From Patescibacteria group bacterium (lineage in GTDB: Bacteria > Patescibacteriota > UBA1384 > UBA12157 > JAENIV01): a stretch of DNA of 64,000 nt. Numbering within the stretch: position 1 is the stretch's first letter; each line of letters begins with the position of its first letter. The notes beneath the pieces were generated by a model. The model saw only the letters and a program-made list of their open reading frames with translations, searched no databases and was not told the DNA's origin. Both the position numbers and the translations under genes were made by a program. The stretch spans positions 12,709 through 76,708 of the forward strand of contig JBEKTP010000004.1 of assembly GCA_049515915.1 (NCBI GenBank), written 5' to 3'. Shown one piece after another: positions 3,550 to 55,876 of the stretch.

Positions 3550-4576
3550 TTATATCATCTTTTTTAGTTTTTTTCTCAAGTAATATCCATTACAATGTTT
3601 TAAAAGTCCAAGATATGATGGTAAATTTTTTTTACTTCGTTTTTGCAACATTCTCTTCTTGGTCTTGGTTCGCAAAACTCGATAATGCGGCAAAATAACA
3701 TAGCCTAAAAAATCTATGCCTTGTTTTAATTTACGCACAATAATTTTTTGAGGATGCGGTCTTAACGCAAGACGGCAATCAAGAAAAAAAGAAATTCGGC
3801 CGACCAAAATCTCTAACTCAGTGCGGTTGCCGCTTAAAATTACAAAGTCATCGCAATAGCGAAGATAATATTTGATTTTTAAACGATGTTTAATAAACTG
3901 GTCAAGTTCGTTGAGATAGATATTGGCAAAAAGCTGTGAAGTTAAATTGCCAATCGGAAGCCCAGTTCCGTTGAGGTTTAACTCGCGGATTGGATTCGTC
4001 TCTCTCTCTCTCTCTCTCGAAAAGTCCCTGCTGAACATATGGTTTATTAAAGCTACCAATAATAACTTTCAATAGCCATTGTGTGTCAGGATCGGGGACT
4101 TTTCGAGCAACAATATCAAAAAGAGCTCGATGATTGACCGAGGCAAAGAACTTTTTAACATCGCATTTTAATACCCAGCACGGCTTGGTATAATTTTTGC
4201 TGACAATCCTCGTAAATTCTTCCAGCCGTTTTACCGCCTTATGCGTACCTTTTTTATTTCGACAAGAATAAGAACCGTCCACAAAACCAGGGTCAAAAAT
4301 CGGATATAATACCCGATAAATCGCGTGGTGAACAATCCTATCTTTAACACAAGCTTTGTGAATATGCCTCGATTTAGGGTCAGTGATGTAAAATGAGGTA
4401 TAATCGGAATGCCGATAAGTTTTACTTTTAAGTTCCAAGTGCAGGCCGAATAAATTATCTTCTAAATTACGCTCAAATTCTTGAACATCAATCTTGTGGC
4501 GTTTACCCTTCCTAAACTCCTTCCAAGACCAAAATAAGTTTTCTAAAGAAATAATTTTTAAAAAGAGGTTATCCAT
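3550..4576 (-). CDS. DGR reverse transcriptase, interrupted by a frameshift inside a (TC)10 dinucleotide repeat (two overlapping ORFs 3902..4576 and 3550..4059)
   Basis: N-terminal ORF: ...FYITDPKSRHIHKACVKDRIVHHAIYRVLYPIFDPGFVDGSYSCRNKKGTHKAVKRL... (RT motifs 1-2). C-terminal ORF: GLPIGNLTSQLFANIYLNELDQF...YLRYCDDFVIL (DGR-RT signature QGxxxSP-like LPIGNLTSQ and YxDD catalytic box). Both frames read ERERE across the (GA)n repeat at 3999..4018. Total ~340 aa, DGR/retron-size RT with no maturase or endonuclease domain. Confidence 0.9.
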
Positions 4577-4916
4577 GATTAATGATGTTCCAATTGTCCA
4601 AAAGGTTTACGACTTTTACCGTGAATTTTATCAGACTCTTCCAAGCATGCCAAAACAGGACCGTCATGTTTTAGGCGGCAAAATCCAGCAAGCCACACTT
4701 GATCTTTTAGAAGATTTAATCTCGGCCAGCCATCAAGGAAAACAAAATAAACTCGAATATTTATCGAAGGCGGCAACGAAACTGGATTTACTCAAGCTTC
4801 TTTTACGGCTGGCGGAAGATATAAAAGCCATATCTCCCAAAAGATATTTGGCGCTCTCGGAAATCTTGCAAGAAATCGGCAAGATGCTCGGCGGCTGGAT
4901 TAGAAGTCTCAACTAA
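4575..4916 (+). CDS. avd: DGR accessory variability determinant (Avd; four-helix-bundle / 23S-IVS protein family)
   Basis: Track ORF 4494..4916; likely start ATG 4575 (MINDVPIVQKVYDFYREFYQTLPSMPKQDRHVLGGKIQQATLDLLEDLISA...ILQEIGKMLGGWIRSLN). The pattern and C-terminal IGKMLGGWIRSLN closely parallel Bordetella phage bAvd (..VGRILGSWIARVN), quoted from memory rather than checked here. Start overlaps the RT start divergently. Confidence 0.75.
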   Translation: MINDVPIVQKVYDFYREFYQTLPSMPKQDRHVLGGKIQQATLDLLEDLISASHQGKQNKLEYLSKAATKLDLLKLLLRLAEDIKAISPKRYLALSEILQEIGKMLGGWIRSLN

Positions 4917-4956
4917 AAGCAAAAACTCCCGCCAATGACGGGAGAAATGAAGAAAG

Positions 4957-5083
4957 TTGCGGCGGAACGCCCACCGGTTGTTGCCATTCCAGACGTTGTC
5001 GGGGTGACCATTGTTGCCGTTGAGCCAACGTCCGTCCTCGTTGCGTTCGACGTTGAACACCTTGAGGTTGCCGTCGGAGTCCG
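4957..5083 (-). repeat. DGR template repeat (TR)
   Basis: 127-bp near-copy of 5506..5632. All ~23 mismatches fall where this copy has T on the + strand (A on the minus/transcribed strand). The corresponding pseudo-ORF is Asn-rich (NVERNEDGRWLNGNNGHPDNVWNGNNRWAFRRN), i.e. AAY codons. Confidence 0.9.
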
Positions 5084-5154
5084 TCAAGTGCAAAACGCCC
5101 TCCGAAGTCACTGCTCCTCGATTACTCTCAGAGCTGTATTTTATTTTGGGCCAT

Positions 5155-5355
5155 TTAACCCACTGGCGTTTTGCACCAAGTATCTTCATTTTTTAAGCAT
5201 TGCCGAATCGCTATATGCAAAGAAACTTTGCTTATAACAGGCCAATAGACCTCACTATCCCAAGCCGTAGCCGGGAATACTCCGGATTTGACAACGCCAG
5301 GATTCGGTAGCGGAAAGCCGTAACCGTCCGCATATTCACCTAATACCTTACCCAT
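5155..5355 (-). CDS. Hypothetical 66-aa protein between VR and TR (possible DGR accessory ORF)
   Basis: ORF with AAGGAA RBS 3 nt upstream of ATG; no recognisable family; ends just upstream of TR. Confidence 0.3.
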   Translation of the reverse strand: MGKVLGEYADGYGFPLPNPGVVKSGVFPATAWDSEVYWPVISKVSLHIAIRQCLKNEDTWCKTPVG

Positions 5356-5407
5356 TGTTCCTTATGAGTACTTATCTGTCAAGTCAATTTTAAAAAATTT
5401 TCGAAAA

Positions 5408-5452
5408 CCCGATTTTGAAGATACAAAATCGGGCCCCGCTCTCGCGGGGCCC
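5408..5452 (-). terminator. GC-rich hairpin (9-bp stem, 4-nt loop, 5431..5452) followed by a rho-independent terminator hairpin (5408..5433 plus T-tract), immediately downstream of the DGR target gene/VR
   Basis: +strand gggccccgc-tctc-gcggggccc and cccgatttt-gaagatac-aaaatcggg; on the minus strand the second stem is followed by TTTTCGAAAATTTTTT. Confidence 0.65.
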
Positions 5453-5501
5453 GGACAAGACCCAAGGATCCAAAAGAAACAAGGATCCAAGGTACAAAGA
5501 A

Positions 5502-6176
5502 CTACTTGCGGCGGAACGCCCACCGGTCGTCGCCATCCCAGACGCCGGCGGGGTGACCACGGTGGCCGTAGAGCCAACGACCGCCCTCGTCGCGCGCGAC
5601 GCTGAACACCCGGAGGCGGCCGCCGGAGACCGAGATAGGCTCCATACCCACCAGAATCCACTCGCCCATCGGTTGATCGGCGTACTGAAGACGCCACTGC
5701 GGCCCGACTTCCGCCGGACAGAGACCCAGCCCCATGGAGAGCGCTTTCTCGTAGATCTGGGCCCGGGTTGCGCCGTTGGGAAATCCCAACTCGGCGACCG
5801 AGACCACCACGATATCCACGTCCTCCGGCTTCGAAGCGACATTGATCCGCTTGAGAATGTCGTCGCCCCAGTCGCCGATGCGGTAACCCGCGTCAAGGAG
5901 AGCCTTCCGCAAGTCCTTGACGGACTTGTGCGTGCCCAGCTTGATGGTCGCGAACGGCCTGCGCTCCATGATGGGTTTGCGCAGTTGCTGCTCGGCAGCC
6001 AACTGGTCGAGGAGATCGTGGTGCCGCTTCTTGAACTCGGGGTGATCCATGGCATCCTGCAGATCGGCGGTATTCCGCCGTTCTCTGCCGATAGCCTCGC
6101 AGCGCCGACCGTAGTCCTTAACCGCGTCTTCTGAGACACCTTCCTGCGTCGCTTCGAGAGTAACTCGATCTTTCAT
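5502..6176 (-). CDS. DGR target (variable) protein, 224 aa, C-terminal C-type-lectin-like VR region
   Basis: C-terminus ...VFSVARDEGGRWLYGHRGHPAGVWDGDDRWAFRRK aligns with the TR-encoded NVERNEDGRWLNGNNGHPDNVWNGNNRWAFRRN, with Asn replaced by S/D/G/Y/H/R/A. No signal peptide. Locally GC-rich (>60%) against a ~40% background. Overlapping ORFs 5390..6139(-), 5415..6134(+) and 5362..5697(-) are GC-artefact frames. Confidence 0.85.
   Translation of the reverse strand: MKDRVTLEATQEGVSEDAVKDYGRRCEAIGRERRNTADLQDAMDHPEFKKRHHDLLDQLAAEQQLRKPIMERRPFATIKLGTHKSVKDLRKALLDAGYRIGDWGDDILKRINVASKPEDVDIVVVSVAELGFPNGATRAQIYEKALSMGLGLCPAEVGPQWRLQYADQPMGEWILVGMEPISVSGGRLRVFSVARDEGGRWLYGHRGHPAGVWDGDDRWAFRRK
5506..5632 (-). 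repeat. DGR variable repeat (VR), 3' end of target gene
   Basis: Aligned to TR: identical except at TR-adenine positions (T->C/G/A on + strand). Ends at the stop codon of ORF 5502..6176. The first ~21 nt (ttgcggcggaacgcccaccgg) are identical in both copies (IMH-like). Confidence 0.9.
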
Positions 6177-9077: not shown

Positions 9078-10985
9078 CTACTTTTGAAAGTAATAATTTA
9101 AAATGTCTCGGACGACGGGGCCCGCTTCCGCATAGCCTTCGCCGCCTTGTTCAACCAAAACCGCCACGGCAATTTGAGGGTTATCGTAAGGAGCATAAGC
9201 CGTCATCCAAGCATGAGTTTTACCGGCGACTTCAAACTGGGCCGTGCCGGTTTTGGCGGCGGCCGGAACCGTCAAGCTGCCCAGCTGACTTCGGGCCGAG
9301 CCGCTGGTAACAGCCTCCCGCATTCCTTCTTGAACAACCTGGATATATTGAGGATCAATAAATTTATCTTTCAAAATGTCTTTTTGAAAAACTTCCACGA
9401 CATTGCCATTTTGATCGGTAATTTTATTGACTACTTCCGGCTTTAAAACTTCGCCACCGTTGGCAATCGCCGAAGTGGCCATGACCATTTGTAGCGGGGT
9501 AACCAATAAATCTCCCTGCCCAATGCCTAAGTGATAAGTATCGCCTAAATACCAACTTTCGCCTTTAGTTTTTAGTTTCCAAGCCGGGTCCGGCACCAGT
9601 CCAGTTGCTTCGCCGGGCAGATCAATGCCCGTTTTTTGCCCAAACCCAAATTTAAGCAAATATTTTTTGATCGTTTCGACACCCAAACCCTTGATTTTAT
9701 CCCAACCGCCGGCCACCGAATAAAAAAAGACATCACAACTGACAGCAATCGCTTTACGGACATCGGTTAAACCAAATCCGCCTGGTTTCCAATCGGGATA
9801 AACATAATTACCGACTTTGATTTCACCCGGCGCGTTAATGGTTGTACTGGGGGTGATTTCTCCTTCCTGCAAAGCCATCGAAGCCATAAAAGGTTTAATG
9901 ATTGAACCGGACGGATATTGTCCGGCAATCGCTCGATCGAATAAAGGGTTATCGGGATTTTGTAAGAGCTGCTGGTATTCCTGCGAAGCGGTCGGTCGAG
10001 TAAATAAATTATTATCGTACGAAGGAAGACTAACCAATCCTAAAATTTGGCCGGTCTGCGGATTCATCGCAATCGCCACGCCGCCGGTGCCTTTGGAAGA
10101 TGAAATAACGTTTTGGAGTGAACTGGCCATCACCTGCTCTAAACCGCTATCAATATTTAAAACCAAATTGTCGCCCGGCTGCGGCTCGGTATTTGAAAGC
10201 TGTCTTTGTTGCTGACCTTTGGCATCAACTTCCACTTCGGAAACGCCTGGCACTCCTTTGAGATATTTTTCGTAAGACATTTCCAGTCCGTCTTTGCCGA
10301 TTTCGTCGCTCGATTTGTAACCGGGATTATTTTTAAGTTCTTCCGCCGAAATTTTTCCCACGTATCCTAAAATTGTCGAAAGTCCCGGAATGGTGGCATA
10401 TTGTCGGATCGGATCAGTCGAGACTCCCACCCCGGGCAAATTAGCCGTTTTGACCTGTAGCAGCAAGGCTGTATCCCGATCAAGATTTTGTTTTAAGATG
10501 ACGGGGTCATAAGTCGAAAGTCCTTTTTGAGCCACAGCCGTGGCAATATCATCAACCGGAATTTGAGCAATAAGAGATAAGGTAGTGTAAATGTTTTCTC
10601 GGGCGGATTTATCTTTCGGCAAATCTAAGGGATAAATTTCCAAGCTATAAGAAGCGGTATTTTGAGCTAAAACTTTTCCTTTGGCATCAGTAATTAATCC
10701 CCTGGGGGCGGCGATGTCGCGAACTCTAATTCGATTGCCTTCGGCCAAACTGAGATTAAAACTGCCTTGAGTAATTTGAAGCCGAAGCAGCTGGGCAAAA
10801 AGAGTCCCAAAAATAATTAAGGCGATAAGATAGGCGCCCCAAATAGAGCCGGGTTCTTTCTTGAAAATCTCCCCGCCTTCCGCGTCTGACTTAAAATGCT
10901 CATACTCTAAAGTGTGTTCTTTGAGAATGCGTTTTGACTTATCGCCGGGGAGAGATTTATTGTCAAACAAATCAAATATCGACAT
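9078..10985 (-). CDS. mrdA: Penicillin-binding protein 2 (peptidoglycan D,D-transpeptidase MrdA)
   Basis: 635 aa; N-terminal TM, dimerisation domain, transpeptidase motifs SIIKP (SxxK), and KTGTA (KTG), following mreBCD. Confidence 0.9.
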   Translation of the reverse strand: MSIFDLFDNKSLPGDKSKRILKEHTLEYEHFKSDAEGGEIFKKEPGSIWGAYLIALIIFGTLFAQLLRLQITQGSFNLSLAEGNRIRVRDIAAPRGLITDAKGKVLAQNTASYSLEIYPLDLPKDKSARENIYTTLSLIAQIPVDDIATAVAQKGLSTYDPVILKQNLDRDTALLLQVKTANLPGVGVSTDPIRQYATIPGLSTILGYVGKISAEELKNNPGYKSSDEIGKDGLEMSYEKYLKGVPGVSEVEVDAKGQQQRQLSNTEPQPGDNLVLNIDSGLEQVMASSLQNVISSSKGTGGVAIAMNPQTGQILGLVSLPSYDNNLFTRPTASQEYQQLLQNPDNPLFDRAIAGQYPSGSIIKPFMASMALQEGEITPSTTINAPGEIKVGNYVYPDWKPGGFGLTDVRKAIAVSCDVFFYSVAGGWDKIKGLGVETIKKYLLKFGFGQKTGIDLPGEATGLVPDPAWKLKTKGESWYLGDTYHLGIGQGDLLVTPLQMVMATSAIANGGEVLKPEVVNKITDQNGNVVEVFQKDILKDKFIDPQYIQVVQEGMREAVTSGSARSQLGSLTVPAAAKTGTAQFEVAGKTHAWMTAYAPYDNPQIAVAVLVEQGGEGYAEAGPVVRDILNYYFQK

Positions 10986-16463: not shown

Positions 16464-17711
16464 TTATTCTCTCAAACTCGTTACGATTCGGTTAAGGACA
16501 CTGTCCATAACCGCTTCTTCACCCACTAAATCAATAGCTAAATTAGCTAAGCTCATAGGGGTGATATCCCAAGGGTTAACCAATTCATTAGTTTGATCAA
16601 CGACATTGGCCACATCTTGAGGCCGGATAAAATGGACGGAGGGTTTCCGAGCAAATGGCAAATTCGGTGACCACTCAGCATTTTTCAAAGTTTCTTCGAT
16701 TTCCGGAAGACTGGAGCCGCCGCCGCAAAGAAGAATTCTTGACGGCAATAAATCAACTGATGAAAATTCTTCAAGAGTCAATTCGACTCCCGAAAGCCAA
16801 ACTTGACAATCTGCTTTAAGCGCTTTCTTGACAAATTTCGCATCTTCTTCCGGCAACTCACCTTTAGAATATTTAATTTTCATCGTTTCTGCTTCTTCAA
16901 ACGAGCAACCAAACACTTGAGCGATTCTTTTGGTAAACGAGCGGCCACCCAAGGCAAACATTTTAGTGCCTTCGACACCGCCTTGGCGAACAACAGCGAT
17001 GTCCGAAGTACCGCCGCCAATATCGATAAAAATGGCACTAAATTCGGTGGATTCGTTTGGCCCAACCGACCGGGCTAAAGCATAAGGATCGGCCACAATC
17101 GAGAGGAGATCTAAGCCCAATTCATAGGCGATTGTTTGTAAAGCGCCAAGATGAACAATCGGCGCGAAAGCATTAAAAACACCGACATGAAGCTCCCGTC
17201 CTTGAAAACCCAAAGGGTTAGTGACTTTATAACCGTCAATTTTGACATCGGTAATGGCCGCGTTGACCAATTTCACATCAATTTCATTATGGCCGGTCTC
17301 CCAAGCCAAGATTTGTCTCGCGCGATCAAACGAACGGCGCTGAATGCGCGAGATAATATCTTTAAGCTCGTCGAGGGTGATTCCTACTTTAGGATCGGGT
17401 CGAGTATATTTAATGGTCGTGGTGTTACCTTTAACCAATTCACCGGCGATGCCCATAATAACCTGCTTGGGCATAATTTTAGCCTGTTCGGCCGCCCGAT
17501 CAATCGCTTTCGCACAATTTTTCACCACACCGTGAATATCGGTGACCGTACCGCCTTGCATATCGGAAAGTTTCTGCCGTTGGCGGCCGGTTCCCACAAT
17601 CAATCCTTTGTCGTCTTCGACTTTAAAAACCAGACATTTGGCGTATTCGGTTCCAATGTCGAGCGCGACGCAAAAACGGTTTTCAATTTTCCCTTTCCCG
17701 AATAAACCCAA
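16464..17711 (-). CDS. ftsA: Cell division protein FtsA
   Basis: 415 aa actin-fold ATPase (ALDIGTEYAKCLVF, DIGGGTSDIAVV, LCGGGSSLP). Confidence 0.9.
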   Translation of the reverse strand: MGLFGKGKIENRFCVALDIGTEYAKCLVFKVEDDKGLIVGTGRQRQKLSDMQGGTVTDIHGVVKNCAKAIDRAAEQAKIMPKQVIMGIAGELVKGNTTTIKYTRPDPKVGITLDELKDIISRIQRRSFDRARQILAWETGHNEIDVKLVNAAITDVKIDGYKVTNPLGFQGRELHVGVFNAFAPIVHLGALQTIAYELGLDLLSIVADPYALARSVGPNESTEFSAIFIDIGGGTSDIAVVRQGGVEGTKMFALGGRSFTKRIAQVFGCSFEEAETMKIKYSKGELPEEDAKFVKKALKADCQVWLSGVELTLEEFSSVDLLPSRILLCGGGSSLPEIEETLKNAEWSPNLPFARKPSVHFIRPQDVANVVDQTNELVNPWDITPMSLANLAIDLVGEEAVMDSVLNRIVTSLRE

Positions 17712-20795: not shown

Positions 20796-20883
20796 TGGTG
20801 CCCGAGGTGGGATTCGAACCCACACGACCGGTTAAGGTCACATCATTTTAAGTGATGCGAGTATTCCGTTTCTCCACTCGGGC
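20796..20883 (-). tRNA. tRNA-Leu (anticodon TAA), CCA encoded
   Basis: GCCCGAGTGGAGAAACGGAATACTCG-CATCA-CTTAAAA-TGATG-long variable arm-GTGGGTTCGAATCCCAC-CTCGGGC-ACCA. Confidence 0.85.
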
Positions 20884-20889
20884 ATGTTT

Positions 20890-21396
20890 CTATCTTCTAT
20901 TTCTTCCTCTATGTGTTGGCTTTAAGCTGTGACAATTTGGACATAGTATTCTTAAATTTTTCAATCTATTATCACGACTATTCCCATTTATGTGGTCAAT
21001 CTCTAAAGGCAAACGACCATCCTTTGATCTTTTAGCCCATCCGCATTCTTCACAATAAGGCAGTTTTAATCCAGCAGAAAGTAGTCTATTTTTCAATTTA
21101 TAACTCTGAAAAGTACTATTGGACACTATTATTTTTTTAATTGGGATTCTTGGTCTACTTAACCCCCGTAAACCTTTATTCCAGCCCCGCCCTTTAAGAT
21201 GCGATACATCTATATTATACAACTTAATATATTTTTGTATCTGGCTATAATTTCCGCCTGCCTCGCGCAGTCTTAATCGAATTAGTATTTGCCGGATACT
21301 TCTTGAATTCTTTACTGCTACCCTCAAATCATTTTCCGTCCATTTTCTTTCTCTCATATTTCCAGTATATAATACGGCAAACGTATAATCAAGCAT
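20890..21396 (-). CDS. HNH endonuclease (free-standing), abutting tRNA-Leu(TAA)
   Basis: 168 aa; C-terminal EIDHINGNSRDNRLKNLRILCPNCHS HNH/zinc motif; stop codon 7 nt from the tRNA 5' end. Confidence 0.8.
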   Translation of the reverse strand: MLDYTFAVLYTGNMRERKWTENDLRVAVKNSRSIRQILIRLRLREAGGNYSQIQKYIKLYNIDVSHLKGRGWNKGLRGLSRPRIPIKKIIVSNSTFQSYKLKNRLLSAGLKLPYCEECGWAKRSKDGRLPLEIDHINGNSRDNRLKNLRILCPNCHSLKPTHRGRNRR

Positions 21397-47934: not shown

Positions 47935-48009
47935 GGGCCCATAGCTCAGAGGTAGAGCGTCGCCCTTTTAAGGCGAGCGTCCCGGGTTCGAATCCCGGTG
48001 GGCCCTCCA
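47935..48009 (+). tRNA. tRNA-Lys (anticodon TTT), CCA encoded
   Basis: GGGCCCA-TA-GCTCAGAGGTAGAGC-G-TCGCC-CTTTTAA-GGCGA-GCGTC-CCGGGTTCGAATCCCGG-TGGGCCC-T-CCA; spurious ORF 47795..48010 overlaps. Confidence 0.9.
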
Positions 48010-48059
48010 TTTAGAAAGTGGAACTTTTTAGGTGGAGGGAAAAGAATATAAGGACATGA

Positions 48060-48082
48060 AAGACCATTTTGGGTCTTTTTTG
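48060..48082 (+). terminator. Rho-independent terminator after tRNA-Lys
   Basis: aagacc-attttg-ggtctt followed by TTTTGG. Confidence 0.5.
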
Positions 48083-48230
48083 GTGTCAAAGAGGCCTATT
48101 CTTGGTCACTCTCAAAACCGTTGATAATTCGGTTGTTTTGTAGTATAGTGTGCTTAGTAGTTTATCTTCTTTCGGCCGATAAACGAGCTTTGCTTAAGCG
48201 AGACTAAGAATCGGCGCAAGGAGAAGGAGA

Positions 48231-48713
48231 ATGTCGATCAGGGTCAAATTCTGCTGGCTGCTCTGCATCATCAACCCAGTTTTGGGTTGGTATTTCGGCT
48301 GGTGGCGACATGGGACAACGGCTATTCTCTGGCTGGCGCTGGAGGGCGCCATTTTGAGCGCGATCGCATATTTACAGCGACGGCCTTGGCTTTCAGAATG
48401 GTACCCCAAAGTTGGGGACCTCGAACGAATTCTCTGGACGATCGGACAGTGCGAGGATTGTGGCATCGGAGTTGAGATGTGCACAATCAAAGCTCGAACT
48501 ACGCCTTTCAACGAGATGTCGTTGGAAAATGGGGTTCAGCGGATCAGGAGGGCTTTGCTCATACTTGAAGATCAGTGTATCAAGTCCGAAGAACGTTTCA
48601 ACCCAAACCCCGGCGGCGAGTGGTATCGGGTTTATCACCTCACCAGTCTTGGCCGGGTACTCTACGAGATCCAGCGCCGCCAACGTCTGGAACGAGAACT
48701 CGAGCGGGTCTAA
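48231..48713 (+). CDS. Hypothetical protein (160 aa; 2 N-terminal TM + Cys-containing soluble domain), GC-rich
   Basis: Strong RBS (AAGGAGAAGGAGAATG); an intrinsic terminator at 48855..48912 follows; the GC content here is visibly higher than the flanking DNA. Confidence 0.55.
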   Translation: MSIRVKFCWLLCIINPVLGWYFGWWRHGTTAILWLALEGAILSAIAYLQRRPWLSEWYPKVGDLERILWTIGQCEDCGIGVEMCTIKARTTPFNEMSLENGVQRIRRALLILEDQCIKSEERFNPNPGGEWYRVYHLTSLGRVLYEIQRRQRLERELERV

Positions 48714-48854
48714 CAGATAGACCAGTGTAACGACCTTAAGCCTCTGCGTGGATTTGCCAATCTGGTAAGTCACTTCATGCAGAGGCTGCTGTTTTATATC
48801 TCAATGTTTAAGATAATTTCGGGCGCACTAGGGGAGTCCCGACAAACGTTCCAG

Positions 48855-48912
48855 CCCGCAGGTAAGTTGGCGATTATGTTTCCCATCGCCACCCCTGCGG
48901 GTTCTTTTTTTT
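48855..48912 (+). terminator. Intrinsic terminator (8-bp GC stem cccgcagg/cctgcggg + T9)
   Basis: Stem followed by ttcttttttttt. Confidence 0.5.
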
Positions 48913-48971
48913 ACACGAAAATCAGTTTGGGTTTCATCATCTTCCAATACTCATTATCCTTCAGTAATTTT

Positions 48972-49006
48972 ACAAAAAGGGCGCGAATCCTTTCGGACCG
49001 CGCCCT
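48972..49006 (-). terminator. Intrinsic terminator for FkbM methyltransferase gene
   Basis: agggcgcg-(13 nt)-cgcgccct, with T-tract on the minus strand. Confidence 0.5.
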
Positions 49007-49030
49007 ACGGTTTTCTCACCCCTCCCTTGT

Positions 49031-49891
49031 TCAGATCCGTTTGGCCCAGAGCAGGCCGTGATGCGTGAAAACCAGCCTCTTGACCCGGACCTCGAACCCG
49101 TGACTCTCAAGGAACTGCCGAAGAACGTTTTCATTTCGCCCTTCGTCAATGACATGGAACTCGAGAGCGAGGCGCGAGATGCGCTCCAGTAGTTCTGGCG
49201 GACTTTTGCAGAGGATGTCGTACTCTGCGCCCTCGATGTCCATTTTCAGGAAGTCGATGGTCTCAATCCCGCAACGCTGGAAGACACCCTCGAGCGTGAT
49301 TGACTCCACGCTCATTCTGATCCGGTTCATCGGTAAAACCAGAGAGTGTCCACCATTATTACGAGGGTTGAAAAATAGCTCAACCGCCCCTGCCACATCG
49401 CTGACGGCCAGCTGGAAAGCCTGCACATTTTTGATGTGGTTCAGCGCAAGGTTTTCTTTAAGCAGGCGGTAGTTACTCTCGACTGGCTCGAAGGCGTAAA
49501 CTACCCGTGCTTGTCCAGCGGCCGTTAGGCTAAAGGCGCCGAGGTGAGCGCCAATGTCGACAACAACATCTCCCGGGTTGATTTCGAAGCCGGGGAAATT
49601 GTTGTAGTCCCGCCGCAGGGCAACCTCCAGAACAATGCAACGATCCATCGTATTGCTCCGGGTTTGGATCCGCTGTCCGTTTCTTAAGCGGTAGAGGGTC
49701 ATCAACACCCTTTTCCGCTTAAGAAGATTGAGAAAGTAGTCAGGCCAGTTGACCAAACCAGCAATAGGAATGAAGAAGTCCAGCGGCGGAGGGACAAAGG
49801 AGTATTCGCCGCGCCGTACGCTGCTCGCAATGCGCTTGATGTTCAATCTCTGTCTCCTCCTTGGGTAACAGTGTGATATAAATTGAACCAT
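49031..49891 (-). CDS. FkbM-family SAM-dependent methyltransferase
   Basis: 286 aa; VVDIGAHLGAFS (motif I), FEP, LKMDIEGAEYDIL FkbM signatures; GC-rich. Confidence 0.8.
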   Translation of the reverse strand: MVQFISHCYPRRRQRLNIKRIASSVRRGEYSFVPPPLDFFIPIAGLVNWPDYFLNLLKRKRVLMTLYRLRNGQRIQTRSNTMDRCIVLEVALRRDYNNFPGFEINPGDVVVDIGAHLGAFSLTAAGQARVVYAFEPVESNYRLLKENLALNHIKNVQAFQLAVSDVAGAVELFFNPRNNGGHSLVLPMNRIRMSVESITLEGVFQRCGIETIDFLKMDIEGAEYDILCKSPPELLERISRLALEFHVIDEGRNENVLRQFLESHGFEVRVKRLVFTHHGLLWAKRI

Positions 49892-50069
49892 TCATAATAT
49901 GATAAAAAGATCGAAAAGTCAATAGGGGCTTTTCGCTTAGATACTTTAGTAACTTGACACGTAGGGGTTTGTAGAGAGAGGGGACATCCCATCCACGTCA
50001 CGGCCCCCTTGATACTCCAGTAAGTTTATAGTACTATGTAATACCAGCTTAATAGAACAACAAATCTGA

Positions 50070-50735
50070 TTGGACCTTCACAACAACCGCCCAAAGGCGA
50101 GAAAGGAAAAAGGTGTGAGCCGACGTATCGGGAAAGCACTCGTGGGCCTGATCGTCATCTGCGGACTCGTAATCGCAGAGCTTTCCAAGCGACTACTTCA
50201 CTACAAGTACTTTGCTCTTTTTCTTTTTAAGCTGCCTAGCGGACCGTCGTACATGGTTGTCACTGGTTCATTGGCAGCAGCAAAGATCTTGGATTTTTGG
50301 ACTGCTTATCTCGTCATTGTTATCGGCGATCTGACGGGCGACACTTTTTACTACTGCGTGGGCCGCTGGGGTGGCTTACGTTTTCTGAAGAGATGGGGCC
50401 AGTATATCTGGCTCGATCCGAAAAGGGTCGACCATCTAAAGTCCCGTTTTGCAAGTCATGGTGGCAAAATCTTGCTTTTCGGGAAGTTTACTCAGATTTT
50501 CGGTGCCGTGATCTTGGCTGCGGCTGGTGTTGCCGAGATGTCTTACTTACGGTTTCTGCTGTATAACCTCTTGGCGACCTTGCCAAAGACGCTCTTTTTT
50601 CTACTGATCGGTTTCTACTGTTTTCAGGCATATCCCAGGATCCACCGTTATTCTGGATGTGCCGCAGCGGTCTTTATCCTTTTGACCATCCTGGTCATCT
50701 GGATCGCTAAGCGGAAGAACCGAGAGTTCGCTTAA
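50070..50735 (+). CDS. DedA/VTT-domain membrane protein
   Basis: 221 aa; DedA-like (TGDTFYYCVGRWGG.., GKF...) polytopic; true start may be GTG ~50114. Confidence 0.7.
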   Translation: MDLHNNRPKARKEKGVSRRIGKALVGLIVICGLVIAELSKRLLHYKYFALFLFKLPSGPSYMVVTGSLAAAKILDFWTAYLVIVIGDLTGDTFYYCVGRWGGLRFLKRWGQYIWLDPKRVDHLKSRFASHGGKILLFGKFTQIFGAVILAAAGVAEMSYLRFLLYNLLATLPKTLFFLLIGFYCFQAYPRIHRYSGCAAAVFILLTILVIWIAKRKNREFA

Positions 50736-50850
50736 CTATGGCCGGGAGCCAAAAGTTTCCGGCCATTCGCATATCTAAAAAACACCTAATGGAAGATTTT
50801 CAATTGACTTCTATCTCAAGAAGGAATATAACGGAGGCGAAAGGACCACG

Positions 50851-50991
50851 ATGCAAACTTTTAAATTAACTTTTGCCATCATCGCTGTTATTGTTTATAT
50901 TTTAATCTATCCTCACCTCATTAATCGCTGCAAATTTTATCTTAATCAGCAACAAACTCTGATCCAACAACTAACAAGCAGTAATGGTTAA
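50851..50991 (+). CDS. Possible 46-aa hydrophobic peptide whose 3' end lies in direct-repeat copy A
   Basis: MQTFKLTFAIIAVIVYILIYPHLINRCKFYLNQQQTLIQQLTSSNG*; below the ORF-track size cutoff; uncertain. Confidence 0.25.
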   Translation: MQTFKLTFAIIAVIVYILIYPHLINRCKFYLNQQQTLIQQLTSSNG

Positions 50992-51011
50992 AATTTAAGA
51001 TTTTTTCTTTG
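50962..51011 (+). repeat. Direct repeat copy A (~48 bp)
   Basis: ccaacaactaacaaGcagtaatggttaaaatttaagattttttcttt; near-identical copy at 52219..52268. Confidence 0.8.
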
Positions 51012-51091
51012 TTAAATACCGCTCGCGTTGGCCTTCAGCCCCAATTTGTAAATGTTGTAATAATATACTACAATTGTTGTAAGATTAAACA

Positions 51092-51667
51092 ATGACAAAC
51101 TTTTTAGAAATCACCAGATCTAAACTCCGGCGTAAACTTATGGCTTATTTTTATACGAACACGGAAAGTAAGCTCTATTTGCGCGAGATTGCTTCCATTC
51201 TTAGGGAAGATGCTGGTAATCTTTCAAAAGAACTTTCCCATCTTGAAGAAGAAGGGATCTTTATTGCAGAAATGCGTGGAAATCAGAAATATTTTTCTCT
51301 CAATCTAAATTATCCTTTGTATAAGGAATTAAAATCAATTATTTTTAAAACGATCGGGATCGAAGGTTCTTTAAAAACAACACTAAGAAAGATCAACGGC
51401 ATCAGGATTGCCTTTATTTATGGTTCCTTTGCCTCCGATAAACAGAATGGTCTCTCCGATATAGACTTGGCAATTATTGGTAAAATTAATGAAAATGGAT
51501 TATTAAAAGAAATTAATAAATTAGAAAAAATTTTGGATAGAGAAATTAATTATACGCTTTATTCTGAAACAGACTGGGATCGAATGAAAAAAATGAAAGA
51601 TACATTTACGGCTAATATTTTTGATGAGCCTAAAATAATGTTAATTGGAGGAGAAAATGAACTTTGA
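51092..51667 (+). CDS. Winged-helix + minimal nucleotidyltransferase (MNT) domain protein (antitoxin-like)
   Basis: 191 aa; N-terminal wHTH (YLREIASILREDAGNLSKELSHLEEEGIF), NTase motif GSFASDKQNGLSDIDLAII. Confidence 0.7.
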   Translation: MTNFLEITRSKLRRKLMAYFYTNTESKLYLREIASILREDAGNLSKELSHLEEEGIFIAEMRGNQKYFSLNLNYPLYKELKSIIFKTIGIEGSLKTTLRKINGIRIAFIYGSFASDKQNGLSDIDLAIIGKINENGLLKEINKLEKILDREINYTLYSETDWDRMKKMKDTFTANIFDEPKIMLIGGENEL

Positions 51668-52112
51668 TGATTTAGTGAAAAAGGAGAGCTTAAAGAAAGT
51701 TTCACGAATTGATTGGCAGATGATATCACGCTTAATTAAACGCGCCAAAAAAGATCTTAAAACGGCCAAAAAGAATTTAAACGATGATGAACCAACCGCT
51801 TTAGATTTAGTCTATAAGTCGATGTTCCATGCAGCTAATGCGTTAATTCAGTCGCAAGGGTACCGGCCAGGCAAAGTTCGCCAACATATTGGAGTAATCG
51901 AAGCTATAGAAAGAACTCTAGGGGTTGAAACTAGACCGATGATTAGAAAATTTGATCGTTTAAGACAAAAGAGAAATGAATTTGAATATCAGGGACTTTA
52001 TCGAGGAACAAAGACAGAAATTATAAATGGATTTCATGACGCAGAATTATTAATAGAAAAAATTGAAGAGTATATTTACTTAAAAAATCTGCAAAAGAAG
52101 TTTAAGCTTTAA
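51645..52112 (+). CDS. HEPN-domain protein (toxin-like partner of MNT)
   Basis: 155 aa all-alpha; overlaps upstream gene by 23 nt; KSMFHAANALIQSQGYRPGKVRQHIGV... HEPN-like helices; no canonical Rx4-6H motif, so the family call is tentative. Confidence 0.55.
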   Translation: MEEKMNFDDLVKKESLKKVSRIDWQMISRLIKRAKKDLKTAKKNLNDDEPTALDLVYKSMFHAANALIQSQGYRPGKVRQHIGVIEAIERTLGVETRPMIRKFDRLRQKRNEFEYQGLYRGTKTEIINGFHDAELLIEKIEEYIYLKNLQKKFKL

Positions 52113-52218
52113 TGCTAATCGCTTTTTAATCATCGAAGAATCAAATTAAAACTATCCGAATCATAATTTTTGAAGATGATTTGAAAACATCAGCCATGAG
52201 TGTCTCATTCTTGAAATT

Positions 52219-52268
52219 TTCCAACAACTAACAAACAGTAATGGTTAAAATTTAAGAATTTTTTCTTT
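52219..52268 (+). repeat. Direct repeat copy B (~48 bp)
   Basis: ccaacaactaacaaAcagtaatggttaaaatttaagaAttttttcttt. Confidence 0.8.
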
Positions 52269-52294
52269 TCGGCCTCGTTTTTTAGCATTATTTT

Positions 52295-54028
52295 TTATCT
52301 TTTGAGTATCTCCATAAAAACGTTATCCGGAATCTCCACCCGGCCAAGCTGCTTCATTTTTTTCTTGCCCTTGGCTTGTTTCTTTAAAAGTTTATCTTTG
52401 CGCGTTCTATCGCCGCCGTAAAGTTTAGCAATAACGTCTTTTCTCAACGCCGAAATATCTTCGCGGGCTAAAATTTTTCCGCCAACCGCAACTTGAATGG
52501 AAACTTCAAAAAGCTGTTTTGGAATTAATTCTTTAAACATCAAAGCCAGTTTTTTAGCCTCGGCTTGGGCGCGGGAGTGGGGGACAATGCGGGAAAATTC
52601 CGACACTTTATCGCCAGCGATAATGACATCGAGCTTGACTAAATCCGACTCCCGATAGCCGATCATTTCATAATTTTGCGACGCATATCCTTGCGAAACA
52701 GATTTAAGCTTGTCATAAAAATCAACGATAATTTCGCCCAGCGGCGCTTCGTATGCCAAAATAACCCGGCCGTGAGAATCGCCCAAGTATTTTGTATCCT
52801 TGTAAATCGCTCGCCGTGACTGGACTAACCCCATCACCGGTCCCAAATATTGGTTCGGGGTGATAATTTCCAAATTCACCCACGGTTCTTTGTAAAGTAC
52901 GTGAGTACCAGAGGAATCGATCTCGTAGGCCACCTGCGGCTGGGTGATGATTAAATCTAAATTATATTCGCGCTCCAACCGTTCCTTAACAATTTCCATA
53001 TGTAATAATCCCAAAAATCCGCAGCGGAATCCCTGACCGAAACTTTGGGAAGATTCCGGCGTAAAACTTAAACTGGAATCATTTAAAGCCAGTTTTTCGA
53101 GGGCTTTCCGTAGAATAGCCGGGTCGTCGCCCTGAGTGTAGAAACTGGCGTAAACAAACGGCGTCGGAATTTTAAAACCCGGGATAGGGGAGACTGATTC
53201 GGGGGAGTCTGTTGAAATGGTGTCGCCGACTTTAATTTCACTGATGTCTTTGGCGCCGGTGACAATGTAACCGATCTCCCCTGCCCGCAGAACATTTTTT
53301 GGACTATATTTTAACTTAAACTCCCCGACTTCGGAAGCGGCCTCTATTTTTCCGGTCCCTAAAAATTTTATCTTATCGGCTCCTCGCAGTTCCCCTTCAA
53401 AAACCCGAACATAGGCAATAGCGCCCCGGAAATCATTAAAGACGGAATCAAAAATCAAAGCCTTTAAGCGGCTCCCTTCCTCCCCTGTTGGCGCCGGCAC
53501 ATCCTTGATAATCGCGTCTAAAATCTCGGCGACGCCTTCGCCCGTTTTAGCCGAACAAGTTAGAATTTCACTTTCATCAATATTGAGTAAATCCGAAAGT
53601 TCTTTTTTAGACTCTTCTACCCTCGCCCCAGGTAAATCGATTTTATTAATTACCGGAATGATTTTTAAATTATGAGTTTGGGCGATATGTAAATTGGCTA
53701 AAGTTTGGGCCTGAATACCTTTACTTGCATCAACAAGCAAAACTGCTCCCTCCACGGCTGCCAGCGATCTTGAGACTTCGTATGAAAAATCCACGTGGCC
53801 GGGAGTGTCGATCAAATTTAAAGCATAATCTTTGTATCTCATCGTCACCGGCTGAAGCTTGATCGTGATCCCCCGCTCCCGCTCAAGATCCATCGTATCG
53901 AGCATCTGCGGTTTGATTTTGTCAGCCGCAACAGTGCCAGTTTTCTCCAGCATCCGATCAGCTAAAGTCGATTTACCATGATCGATATGACTGATGATAC
54001 AAAAATTTCTAATATTTTTTTGGTTCAT
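52295..54028 (-). CDS. lepA: Translation elongation factor 4 (LepA)
   Basis: 577 aa; IRNFCIISHIDHGKSTLADR G-domain and LepA C-terminal domain. Confidence 0.95.
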   Translation of the reverse strand: MNQKNIRNFCIISHIDHGKSTLADRMLEKTGTVAADKIKPQMLDTMDLERERGITIKLQPVTMRYKDYALNLIDTPGHVDFSYEVSRSLAAVEGAVLLVDASKGIQAQTLANLHIAQTHNLKIIPVINKIDLPGARVEESKKELSDLLNIDESEILTCSAKTGEGVAEILDAIIKDVPAPTGEEGSRLKALIFDSVFNDFRGAIAYVRVFEGELRGADKIKFLGTGKIEAASEVGEFKLKYSPKNVLRAGEIGYIVTGAKDISEIKVGDTISTDSPESVSPIPGFKIPTPFVYASFYTQGDDPAILRKALEKLALNDSSLSFTPESSQSFGQGFRCGFLGLLHMEIVKERLEREYNLDLIITQPQVAYEIDSSGTHVLYKEPWVNLEIITPNQYLGPVMGLVQSRRAIYKDTKYLGDSHGRVILAYEAPLGEIIVDFYDKLKSVSQGYASQNYEMIGYRESDLVKLDVIIAGDKVSEFSRIVPHSRAQAEAKKLALMFKELIPKQLFEVSIQVAVGGKILAREDISALRKDVIAKLYGGDRTRKDKLLKKQAKGKKKMKQLGRVEIPDNVFMEILKR

Positions 54029-54134: not shown

Positions 54135-54371
54135 TTAATGTCTTAATGAATCAACCATTTTTTCGATATCGTTTTCTCTTTTGACGCCTTGTTTCCTTGC
54201 TCGTAAAACAAGATCTTTTTGTAAAACTTGCCAATTATCTTTAGTCTGGATATACATCAAAGTTGCTTCTTTCAAAAGCTCTGAACGGCTGCGATATTCT
54301 TCCTCGGCTTTGCGGTCGATTTCTTTAAGAAGCTCATCTGGCAAAGAAACATTAATCGTTTTTACGCTCAT
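54135..54371 (-). CDS. Ribbon-helix-helix (CopG/ParD-like) small protein, orphan
   Basis: 78 aa; N-terminal beta-strand plus two helices (KTINVSLPDELLKEIDRKAEEEYRSRSELLKEA). Confidence 0.55.
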   Translation of the reverse strand: MSVKTINVSLPDELLKEIDRKAEEEYRSRSELLKEATLMYIQTKDNWQVLQKDLVLRARKQGVKRENDIEKMVDSLRH

Positions 54372-54448
54372 CTAAACTCCTTCCAACAATAATTGTTGAT
54401 ACTGTCAAGCAAAATAATCCAAAAAAATACGAATGTTATCGAGAACCA

Positions 54449-55876
54449 TTATTTCGATTCCTTAATCATCTTGATCGCTTCTTGGCGTGTCGAGATTTGA
54501 CCGTCTAAATAAGCTTGCTCAATTTTTGTCTTTATCTCCCCCACTTTCGGCCCGGGCGAAATTTTTAAAATATCCATAATATCTTTGCCAGTAATTAAAG
54601 TAAAGTTTTTAACTTGGACTTTTTCTTCCTCGGAAATTTTTTTGGCAATTTCCTTTCGGAGCTTGATCGCATTCTCGTACATCGATAAATTCGCCCCGCC
54701 ATCTTTTCGGACGCTCGCCAAAAGATCGGCCCGGGTATGTTCGAGCAAAAGATCAATATTGGGATTCATAAAAATTTGTTGCTTTTTTCGATCGCTCATA
54801 TTGCCAAAGGCGTGAATTATCCGCATATGCTGGGCAATCGACCAGGTCACTTTTTCGATAAAGTCGCTGGAAAACTTCAGCCGTTCTAAAATTTCCTGCG
54901 CTTTACGAGCGCTTAAAACGTCATGTTCAAAGAAAGTAATTTTACTTTTGGGATGATCGCGAAATCCTTGCGTTTCGGGCTTGGCAATATCATGCAGTAA
55001 AACCGTCCAGGCCAATTCTTCACTGCATAAATCCGGCAGCTGTTCCAACGCCAGCATTGTGTGAGCCCAGACATCGCCTTCGCTGTGAAATTCCGGCGGC
55101 TGAGCCACGCCTTTTAACAATTCCAGTTCGGGCAAAATATGTTTGAGAATGCCCAGCTCATCGAGCAATTCAATCGCCTTGACCCGATTTTTATTGATTA
55201 AAATTTTGGAAAGTTCGTCTCGAATCCGTTCGGCGGAAATCTTCTCAATCTTTTTAGCAAAGAGCTTAATCGCCTCACTCCCCTTTTTATCAAGGGCAAA
55301 CCCAAACCGGGTGGCAAAGCGCACGGCGCGCAACATTCTTAAATAATCTTCGGCAATTCGCTCATTCGGATCACCGATAAATCTTAACTTTTTATTTTTA
55401 AGATCCTCGACTCCCCCGACATAGTCGATAATTTGTTGATTTTTCGGATCGTAAAATAAACCGTTAATGGTAAAATCGCGACGCTGGGCATCCCGCTTGG
55501 CGTCAACAAATTCGATCTTTCTAGGGTGCCGATGATCAGCAATGCCCAAATCAGACCGAAAAGTGGCAATCTCAAATTCATGATCGTCAAAAATTACCGC
55601 CATCACCCCAAACTGCTTGCCGCGATCGTAGCTTTTTGGAAATATTTTTTTGACTTCAAGAGGTTTAGCGGCCGTCACAATATCGATATCGTGCGCCGTA
55701 ATATTTAATAATTCGTCTCGTACGGCCCCGCCGGCGAAGTAGGTTTCATAACTGGCATTTTTAAGTTTATTTAAAATATTAACCGCTTTTTCCTCTTCCT
55801 TGGTCAGCGGCCTTAGAATTTTAAACTCGTAAATTTTTGCTCCGTCTTTTTTCTTAATGAGCTTTAAACTATCCAT
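54449..55876 (-). CDS. cca: CCA-adding enzyme / tRNA nucleotidyltransferase with HD domain
   Basis: 475 aa; Pol-beta NTase head (GGAVRDELLNITAHDIDIVT), HD motif (LLHDIAKP). Confidence 0.85.
   Translation of the reverse strand: MDSLKLIKKKDGAKIYEFKILRPLTKEEEKAVNILNKLKNASYETYFAGGAVRDELLNITAHDIDIVTAAKPLEVKKIFPKSYDRGKQFGVMAVIFDDHEFEIATFRSDLGIADHRHPRKIEFVDAKRDAQRRDFTINGLFYDPKNQQIIDYVGGVEDLKNKKLRFIGDPNERIAEDYLRMLRAVRFATRFGFALDKKGSEAIKLFAKKIEKISAERIRDELSKILINKNRVKAIELLDELGILKHILPELELLKGVAQPPEFHSEGDVWAHTMLALEQLPDLCSEELAWTVLLHDIAKPETQGFRDHPKSKITFFEHDVLSARKAQEILERLKFSSDFIEKVTWSIAQHMRIIHAFGNMSDRKKQQIFMNPNIDLLLEHTRADLLASVRKDGGANLSMYENAIKLRKEIAKKISEEEKVQVKNFTLITGKDIMDILKISPGPKVGEIKTKIEQAYLDGQISTRQEAIKMIKESK

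Follow-up and report, generated by a model that had tools for sequence, protein, structure and literature searches.

An apparently mobile MNT/HEPN gene pair beside lepA in a Patescibacteria bacterium, flanked by a direct repeat that may be a recombination scar

Results

Next to the lepA gene of a Patescibacteria bacterium, two overlapping genes for a minimal nucleotidyltransferase (MNT) fused to a winged helix-turn-helix (wHTH) domain and for a HEPN protein are enclosed by two near-identical direct repeats. The stretch of DNA that we analysed, called the window throughout, comprises 64,000 nt of contig JBEKTP010000004.1 (positions 12,709 to 76,708; assembly GCA_049515915.1); its LepA and other proteins are annotated publicly as 'Patescibacteria group bacterium'. 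The right part of the locus runs from a gene of 46 codons through the MNT gene, the HEPN gene, repeat copy B, lepA on the minus strand and a ribbon-helix-helix (RHH) gene to the gene of the CCA-adding enzyme (Table 1). Contigs of other organisms that were used for comparison are denoted by L and a number. A preliminary description, drawn up from the letters alone, had read the segment between the repeats as a toxin-antitoxin-like cassette inserted at the end of a short gene.

Table 1. Positions of the features at the locus (numbering of the window)
Feature	Positions	Strand	Description
46-aa small membrane-protein gene (MQTFKLTFAIIAVIVYILIYPHLINRCKFYLNQQQTLIQQLTSSNG)	50851..50991	+	Lineage-restricted orphan; last 28 nt at the start of copy A; from the list of open reading frames (ORFs)
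Repeat copy A	50963..51010	.	48 nt; native 3' end of the 46-aa gene plus trailer, ancestral context on both sides
Native flank f (GTTAAATACCGCTCGCGTTGGCCTTCAGC..)	51011..51038	.	Common to contig L101 (alignment and blastn)
Module promoter with palindromic/direct-repeat operator (TGTTGTAA ... TACTACAATTGTTGTAAG)	51046..51090	+	Promoter scan and half-sites
wHTH-fused MNT gene	51092..51667	+	191 aa; presumed antitoxin and autoregulator
HEPN gene, AF0298-like HEPN-T type	51657..52112	+	151 aa from ATG at 51657; presumed RNase toxin
Spacer g	52113..52219	.	107 nt, without detectable relative
Repeat copy B	52220..52268	.	49 nt; putative isolated relic, frame ..QQLTNSNG-stop; both edges are junctions to unrelated sequence
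lepA-proximal trailer h	52269..52294	.	26 nt; possible lepA-side half of a terminator hairpin intact in L106
lepA (EF4)	52295..54028	-	Convergent with the cassette; Pfam GTP_EFTU and LepA_C
Solitary RHH (CopG-like) gene	54135..54371	-	PF01402 (6.5e-9), phrog_15666; between the lepA relic and the functional lepA start (54028)
Relic lepA 5' end	54405..54452	-	48 nt; follows immediately on the stop codon of the CCA-adding enzyme gene

The C-terminal half of the MNT protein is of the Pol-beta type (PF18765 Polbeta, 2.9e-10; PF01909, 1.9e-6) and carries the GSX10DXD nucleotidyltransferase motif at residues 111-125 (GSFASDKQNGLSDID), while residues 11-71 give a weak match to an ArsR-type (winged-helix) HTH domain. 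The protein matches the PADLOC profile PDC-M05A over its full length (1.6e-48, residues 7-191). Its score with the NCBIfam MntA equivalog, 32.5 bits, lies under the 60-bit cutoff, and the match to AF0614 among the structures of the PDB stands at 0.015. The start codon of the HEPN gene overlaps the MNT stop by 11 nt. Its product matches PF05168 (2.6e-11) and the PADLOC profile PDC-M05B (1.8e-17, residues 1-143), and no match to PF01934 (HepT/DUF86) was found. The nearest solved structure is AF0298 of A. fulgidus (PDB 2hsb, 1.3e-3); in the alignment of the two proteins MFHAA and RQH/KTH are conserved and RNEFEY stands opposite REESDY. In the helix-3 motif the window protein thus has R106-NEFE-Y111 in place of Rx4-6H, and an alternative upstream His (RQH, H77) is retained. 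Members of the AF0298-like HEPN-T family keep the R, have lost the H of Rx4-6H and carry an alternative conserved His between helices 2 and 3 (Anantharaman et al., PMC3710099), and the same combination of a retained R, a missing H and an alternative His is found here.

These matches, together with the overlap, bear out the wHTH-nucleotidyltransferase gene and overlapping HEPN gene that the preliminary description had placed between the repeats. The searches with HepT/MntA profiles that it had suggested were successful as far as the nucleotidyltransferase motif and the Polbeta match are concerned; with the MntA score below its cutoff and PF01934 missing, the pair fits PDC-M05 instead, both partner profiles being matched by adjacent, overlapping genes. 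On its profile matches the pair is an MNT/HEPN module of a known but uncharacterised subtype (PDC-M05, AF0298-like HEPN-T) and not a canonical HepT/MntA system. The toxin activity of the HEPN protein and the antitoxin activity of the MNT are presumed. Upstream of the MNT gene lies a sigma-70-like promoter (TTGTAA-17-TACAAT), overlapped by a palindrome and by two direct TGTTGTAA half-sites (51050-51068 and 51072-51090), to which the wHTH domain of the MNT presumably binds.

The two repeat copies agree at 47 positions; a G/A substitution and an additional A in copy B are their only differences (96% identity), and the copies lie 1257 nt apart, start to start. The near-identical flanking copies reported before are thus real, and their edges are sharp: when they were aligned and extended, as had been recommended, permissive local alignment gained nothing beyond the 48/49 nt. 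A 37-nt core of the repeat (up to three mismatches) has exactly two sites in the window against 0 expected (100 shuffles), and, leaving aside the template and variable repeats of a diversity-generating retroelement (DGR), the window has no other long direct repeat of high identity. With two copies in the window, the 48-mer does not resemble a dispersed repeat of the repetitive extragenic palindromic (REP) kind, which would have many copies at unrelated loci. Beyond the window the core is absent from viral contigs, and among the other loci fetched to that point it was found only at the orthologous site of L101. Independent JGI, ENA and Logan contigs from many samples show 0 differences over 50700-52400; since independent assemblies and samples carry the identical structure, the repeat did not arise as an error of assembly.

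Nine codons and the stop (IQQLTSSNG-stop) at the end of the 46-aa ORF make up the first part of copy A, and 19 nt of trailer follow; the ORF list agrees with the earlier description of copy A as the 3' end of a small hydrophobic ORF. Copy B lies inside no ORF of at least 30 aa. No Rfam match was obtained for the repeat, no terminator was detected in a scan around it, and no terminal inverted repeats were seen at the inner edges of the two copies. Folding of both strands of both copies as single-stranded DNA gave -3 to -7 kcal/mol (z-scores of -1.1 to +1.1) and no attC-like fold. A dif/Xer-like site at the edge of copy A (CTTTGTTAAAT) was also considered and dropped: it had been seen by eye only, a XerC arm to go with it is lacking, and copy B is without the motif.

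Is the module native to this position? The GTDB species representatives, of which the nearest has a LepA of 59% identity, offer no useful synteny, and metagenomic relatives have LepA proteins of 86, 83, 79, 76 and 75% identity. An unrelated gene of 118 codons, convergent with lepA, adjoins it in L086 and L087 and lies 2.6 kb off behind four genes in L106. The module is foreign to this position, since relatives with 75-83% identical LepA carry the 118-aa gene where the window has the module. Together with the same gene in L101 and a GC content of 0.32 for the module against 0.42 for the window, this supports the earlier view of the module as an inserted segment. A homologue of the 118-aa gene was not found in the window (tblastn, E<=10). 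The same-species contigs are all occupied and clonal.

And where does the foreign DNA begin? The 46-aa ORF, the product of which has one transmembrane helix and a polar tail, is called as a gene in all same-strain contigs. Among 1.84 billion representatives its family has one other member only, P0242 (87% aa identity), encoded on the 542-kb contig L101; the two genes differ by six synonymous and six non-synonymous codon changes, and in the part encoding the transmembrane helix by synonymous changes only. Homology between the window and L101 is unbroken at the DNA level from 50795 to 51038, at 86.5% identity, through the gene and copy A and on to 28 nt past the repeat, where it ends. In L101 the 118-aa gene comes directly after the small ORF, and there is a single repeat copy in 20 kb. 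Because positions 51011-51038 (flank f) are common to L101, the left junction of foreign and native DNA falls at about 51038/39, after f, and not at the edge of the repeat. The GC content of f is 0.54, against 0.32 for the module. Copy B is 82% identical to the L101 site, and at both positions that vary between the copies the L101 state is found in copy A and the derived state in copy B. We also asked whether the 46-aa ORF might be a fragment of the 118-aa gene of the relatives; this was rejected, the two being unrelated.

The small-gene segment deserves a remark of its own. The part of the window that aligns with positions 9945-10185 of L101 includes the small gene, its promoter and its trailer, and it is more conserved than the tRNA-Lys region (77%), while the shared proteins of the two organisms are only 55-63% identical. 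This points to an unusually strong conservation of the segment, or to a recent transfer of the small gene itself.

Spacer g has no significant similarity to any locus fetched. Its last 14 nt (ATTCTTGAAATTTT) are the inverted complement of AAAATTTAAGAAT inside copy B, so that a weak hairpin followed by a T-run can be drawn, the folding of which reaches a z-score of only -1.1 to -0.4. A derivation of g from the gene found downstream of the module in L095 was rejected, as 180 of 1000 shuffles reach the alignment score. Trailer h aligns with the lepA trailer of L106 at a local score of 21; it is suggestive only that h derives from the lepA-side half of a terminator hairpin of the L106 type.

The nearest relatives of the MNT (88-91% aa identity) are encoded on contigs L089-L095. 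There the DNA is 89-91% identical to the window only from 51043/50 to 52113/26, that is, over the promoter/operator and the two genes, and the promoter/operator sequence is identical in L089-L092 and L095. The module lies there between an upstream tRNA-Ala gene and a downstream radC, or else it is preceded by another MNT/HepT pair; the flanks are unrelated to those in the window. Neither the 48-mer nor any direct repeat of at least 16 nt occurs around the wHTH-MNT/HEPN module of these contigs. A unit of promoter and two genes is thus found, about 90% identical, at three different chromosomal sites in related uncultured Patescibacteria. Because homology is limited to this extent and comes without the repeat, the mobile unit would be the module of about 1.07 kb, and the repeat a property of the recipient locus and not of a cassette. 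The preliminary description had itself named relatives with the cassette and no repeat as an observation that would speak against its reading; L089-L095 are such relatives, and they argue against the repeats as cassette edges.

Three samples with L089-L094 contigs also hold an organism with a 76% identical LepA. If these contigs belong to that organism, a link that we infer from co-occurrence only, then 91% identity of the MNT against 76% of LepA indicates a recent transfer of the module. No MNT relatives were found in viral contigs or in phage records, and those on plasmids are only distant (about 34% identical, mostly from Legionella). A separate observation on L095 concerns the MNT/HepT pair immediately upstream of its wHTH-MNT/HEPN module: this 810-nt cassette, of the PF01934 type and without an integrase, is bracketed by a perfect 20-nt direct repeat (CCACCAATTAGAAGATTGGA, at 136-155 and 966-985) made up of the last 6 nt of tRNA-Ala(CGC) and 14 nt more.

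Duplicated gene ends are found around lepA as well. The 48-nt relic of the lepA 5' end resembles the junctions between the CCA-enzyme gene and lepA in L102 and L106 (0 of 500 shuffles reach the score). The RHH gene that follows it is absent from all the relatives examined, where the CCA-enzyme gene and lepA abut or overlap. At the other end of the gene, L087 has a 73-nt relic of the lepA 3' end, 74% identical, 153 nt behind the functional one, and further relic 3' ends occur in L102-L105 and L086. By analogy, the lepA 5' relic would be a scar of the same kind as copy B, as would the relic lepA 3' ends and the tRNA-Ala end repeated around the MNT/HepT pair of L095, and both ends of lepA appear to be recombination hot spots in this lineage. 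The relic 3' ends were located at L087 8658-8883, L102 8650-8980, L105 6820-7150 and L086 about 9759-9810. Behind each lepA end of L087 and L102-L105 stands a 66-nt element that folds into a 26-bp hairpin, supported by four compensatory pairs among three copies; Rfam gave no match for this element, and the window does not contain it.

Discussion

The repeat is best discussed from the side of copy B. In our judgement there is about an even chance that copy B descends from the small gene's end, as a relic or as a templated copy of those 3' nucleotides left behind by imprecise general recombination, and is not a site recognized by an integrase. We read it as a relic because a crossover in an att site would place f after copy B, yet f follows copy A. 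In such a history, a self-contained and probably autoregulated module of about 1.1 kb would move horizontally among related Patescibacteria, and would here have entered a hot spot between the 46-aa gene and the 3' end of lepA, replacing the 118-aa gene. Copy B would date from the imprecise joining, through general recombination, of the DNA that carried the module to the flank of lepA.

Several courses of events could have led to this outcome. Homology on one side may have been combined with an illegitimate joint on the other, in the manner of homology-facilitated illegitimate recombination (HFIR), with the anchor on either side and plausibly after natural transformation. Alternatively, a single crossover of the Campbell type may have been followed by deletion of the 118-aa gene, or copy B may be templated filler at a deletion or replacement junction. 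These three variants all fit and are indistinguishable, and the recombination pathway is one that we infer. One-sided homologous integration combined with an illegitimate joint is an established process (HFIR, in natural transformation; PMC3240628), and natural competence has been shown for Saccharibacteria (PMC10633639). Relic gene ends are its expected outcome where the incoming DNA is diverged and is joined by homology at one end and illegitimately at the other. The preliminary description had offered both an insertion at the repeats and a duplication generated on insertion. The latter, brought about by general recombination, is the best reading; the repeats as cassette edges or insertion sites do not agree with a native f after copy A, with the module of L089-L095 lacking the repeat, or with the lack of an attC fold and of a recombinase among the genes called from about 44.3 to 62.0 kb.

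A number of observations weigh against a scar of general recombination. Neither an empty site nor a donor configuration nor a circular form came to light. Moreover, every history that can be drawn requires either two events or a relic already present in the donor. The 96% identity and the razor-sharp edges of the repeat are att-like, and tidier than the lepA relics with their 60-80% identity; furthermore, no microhomology is visible at the junctions of g with copy B and of copy B with h. Only one relative, L101, shows positions 51011-51038 to be native, and h resembles the L106 terminator only weakly (9 of 500 shuffles reach its score). As to the empty site, the predicted junction (left of A, one repeat, right of B) had 0 matches in the metagenome contigs, a collection that failed its positive control. 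Likewise, a 24-nt core of the repeat had 0 matches there, although the JGI contigs carry it twice, which makes both scans uninformative.

Could the repeats be the attL and attR sites of a small integrative cassette without an integrase? Such an element might be a decayed remnant resembling a cis-mobilizable element (CIME), in which an addictive toxin-antitoxin pair has survived, or it might be mobilized in trans. The 3' end of the small gene would have been its target for site-specific integration, and the element would have brought a replacement gene end with it. We regard this, the main rival, as unlikely. A sharp-edged, 96% identical direct repeat that includes a gene 3' end is what such an event leaves, and the integrase-less MNT/HepT pair of L095 between its tRNA-Ala 3'-end repeats, the recurrent duplications of lepA ends in relatives and a tRNA-Lys gene with a variable region 3 kb upstream all point the same way. 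However, a crossover within the repeat predicts f after copy B and not, as observed, after copy A, and elsewhere (L089-L095) the module does without the repeat. Moreover, the window holds just two copies and the other loci fetched to that point none, no recombinase domain lies within about 8 kb, and the sampled populations are all clonal and occupied. In a broader form of the idea, a dedicated, lineage-wide system acting in trans would insert small integrase-less cassettes at gene termini, with 20-75 bp of the target gene end serving as attachment site. Its cargo, typically toxin-antitoxin modules, would include MNT/HEPN and MNT/HepT pairs, the RHH gene and the 66-nt hairpin unit at lepA. Among its targets would be the 3' ends of tRNA genes and of the 46-aa gene as well as lepA at both of its ends, and the 48-mer would be one of its att sites. 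Both the system itself and this assignment of cargo, targets and site seem to us distinctly unlikely.

It is also conceivable, though we give it little credence, that copy B is functional, either as a terminator of the MNT-HEPN operon together with its left flank or as the source of a minus-strand antisense RNA to the 3' end of the small-peptide mRNA, as in type I toxin systems. Indeed, the left flank and the repeat can form a 13-bp stem followed by TTTTTTCTTTT, the one transmembrane helix and polar tail of the 46-aa product are like those of type I toxins, the small-gene segment has 86% DNA identity to L101 versus 55-63% for the shared proteins, and a weak minus-strand promoter-like site (52314-52287) points into copy B. 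Yet the fold energies are those of shuffled sequence (z-scores of -1.1 to +0.5), the terminator scan was negative and Rfam gave no match, L101 manages with a single copy in 20 kb, and both derived changes are in copy B, as in an unconstrained relic. Finally, direct repeats around a short cargo could result from a long target-site duplication, made by a staggered cut of the transposase or casposase kind, or could be a pair of integron attC sites. Toxin-antitoxin cassettes are common in chromosomal integrons, which speaks for the latter. We nevertheless reject this pair of possibilities, which retain hardly any probability: to our knowledge, 48 bp exceeds by far the length of known target-site duplications; the segment has neither a transposase nor terminal inverted repeats just inside the two copies; f, which on this view would be part of the insert, is present at the module-free L101 site; and a hairpin of the attC type, IntI and a cassette array are all lacking.

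The gene pair itself has close counterparts. It shares with PDC-M05 (wHTH-MNT with an AF0298-like HEPN-T protein, UPF0332/PF05168) the full-length matches to both the A and the B profile, the MNT gene in first place and the overlap of the genes, and we see no architectural difference. PADLOC lists PDC-M05 as a candidate defence system, and defence and toxicity are putative both for the family and for the pair in the window. Type VII HepT/MntA systems are exemplified by Shewanella SO_3166/SO_3165 and by the HEPN-MNT pairs of Aphanizomenon and Legionella (PMC7641770, PMC11586414). As in these, the MNT gene with its GSX10DXD motif is upstream of and overlaps the HEPN gene. In contrast, the HEPN protein of the window belongs to PF05168 and not to DUF86/PF01934 and has RNEFEY and not Rx4-6H, while its MNT has an N-terminal wHTH domain and an MntA score below the cutoff. 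By analogy the pair probably works like type VII HepT/MntA, though it does not qualify for that family: the MNT likely neutralises the HEPN protein as in HepT/MntA, and might do so through nucleotidylylation of a Tyr close to the motif, where the HEPN protein has Y111 and Y115.

Like the products of HFIR (PMC3240628), the locus would have foreign DNA beside a homologous anchor and an illegitimate joint at the other end, for which relic or partly duplicated gene ends are predicted; unlike them, it shows no visible microhomology at the junctions, the side of the anchor is not assignable, and the process is deduced from its presumed products. CIMEs and decayed islands in gene 3' ends or tRNA genes similarly have a direct repeat containing a gene 3' end around a cargo without integrase; here, however, the native right flank comes after the wrong copy, the module does without the repeat elsewhere, and the genes and ORFs scanned include no cognate integrase. 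As expected of a site-specific element, direct repeats flank the insert, but the edges of the repeats do not lie at the boundaries of foreign and native DNA. Integron cassettes, too, have small toxin-antitoxin cargo between repeated sequences; the window cassette differs in lacking an attC fold, an integrase and an array, and in having its own promoter.

The movement of toxin-antitoxin modules outside plasmids, phages, transposons and integrons is poorly documented, and the locus provides a concrete example in which a module replaces a resident gene and, on the scar reading, leaves a relic gene end. Taken together, the module and the lepA relics suggest that imprecise, homology-assisted recombination shapes the small genomes of these episymbionts at a few hot spots; the bacteria are plausibly naturally competent. 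For the annotation of metagenome-assembled genomes, the lesson would be that relic gene ends can pass for att sites. No new mechanism is opened by these results, and the locus is fairly ordinary: an added instance of a known module family in a hot spot, with what we take for a scar that mimics an att duplication.

Other features of the window

To the left of the module, the window contains in this order dnaK, dnaJ, an unnamed gene, nifU, the enolase gene, tRNA-Lys(UUU) at 47935-48009, a GC-rich block and the 46-aa gene. In the relatives the pair of the CCA-enzyme gene and lepA is kept, and L087 also keeps enolase, nifU and dnaJ; everything downstream of lepA differs among them. The genes called between about 44.3 and 62.0 kb were searched for Pfam domains of recombinases and transposases, as were ten more ORFs beside tRNA genes and the DGR, and no such domain came to light.

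With a GC content of 0.50 (window 0.42), the GC-rich block at 48010-50735, on the 3' side of tRNA-Lys(UUU), is probably a separate island. It contains an orphan ORF of 160 (or 126) aa, a gene for an FkbM-family methyltransferase (49031-49891, minus strand) and a gene for a DedA/VTT protein (50070-50735, plus strand). These genes are not at the same position in the relatives, and a repeat of the tRNA end was looked for and none was found. Beside another tRNA gene, tRNA-Leu(UAA) at 20796-20883, lies directly a gene for an HNH endonuclease (20890-21396, minus strand).

The DGR mentioned above is complete and occupies positions 3902-6139. It consists of a reverse transcriptase gene (3902-4576, minus strand), bAvd (4494-4916, plus strand), the template repeat (4957-5083) and the variable repeat (5506-5632), the latter inside the target gene (5390-6139, minus strand). 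All mismatches between template and variable repeat (22/22) are at a T of the plus strand, that is, at an A of the coding strand, which is the adenine-specific signature of such elements. L101 has homologues of the reverse transcriptase, bAvd and target-like genes.

A conserved non-coding sequence was also noticed after different tRNA genes and between toxin-antitoxin cassettes on several Patescibacteria contigs (window 48010-48110; L086 about 17080-17230, minus strand; L095 142-280 and 985-1060; L096 340-535; L091 125-225). It is made up of a trailer CCA-NTTAGAAR, a terminator GACCNTTTTGGGTCTTTTTTG-TTGYCAAA, a small GACC..CCCAnGTGGGG hairpin and the motif TTGTGGAACTT, and it may be a cassette-junction or att-like element.

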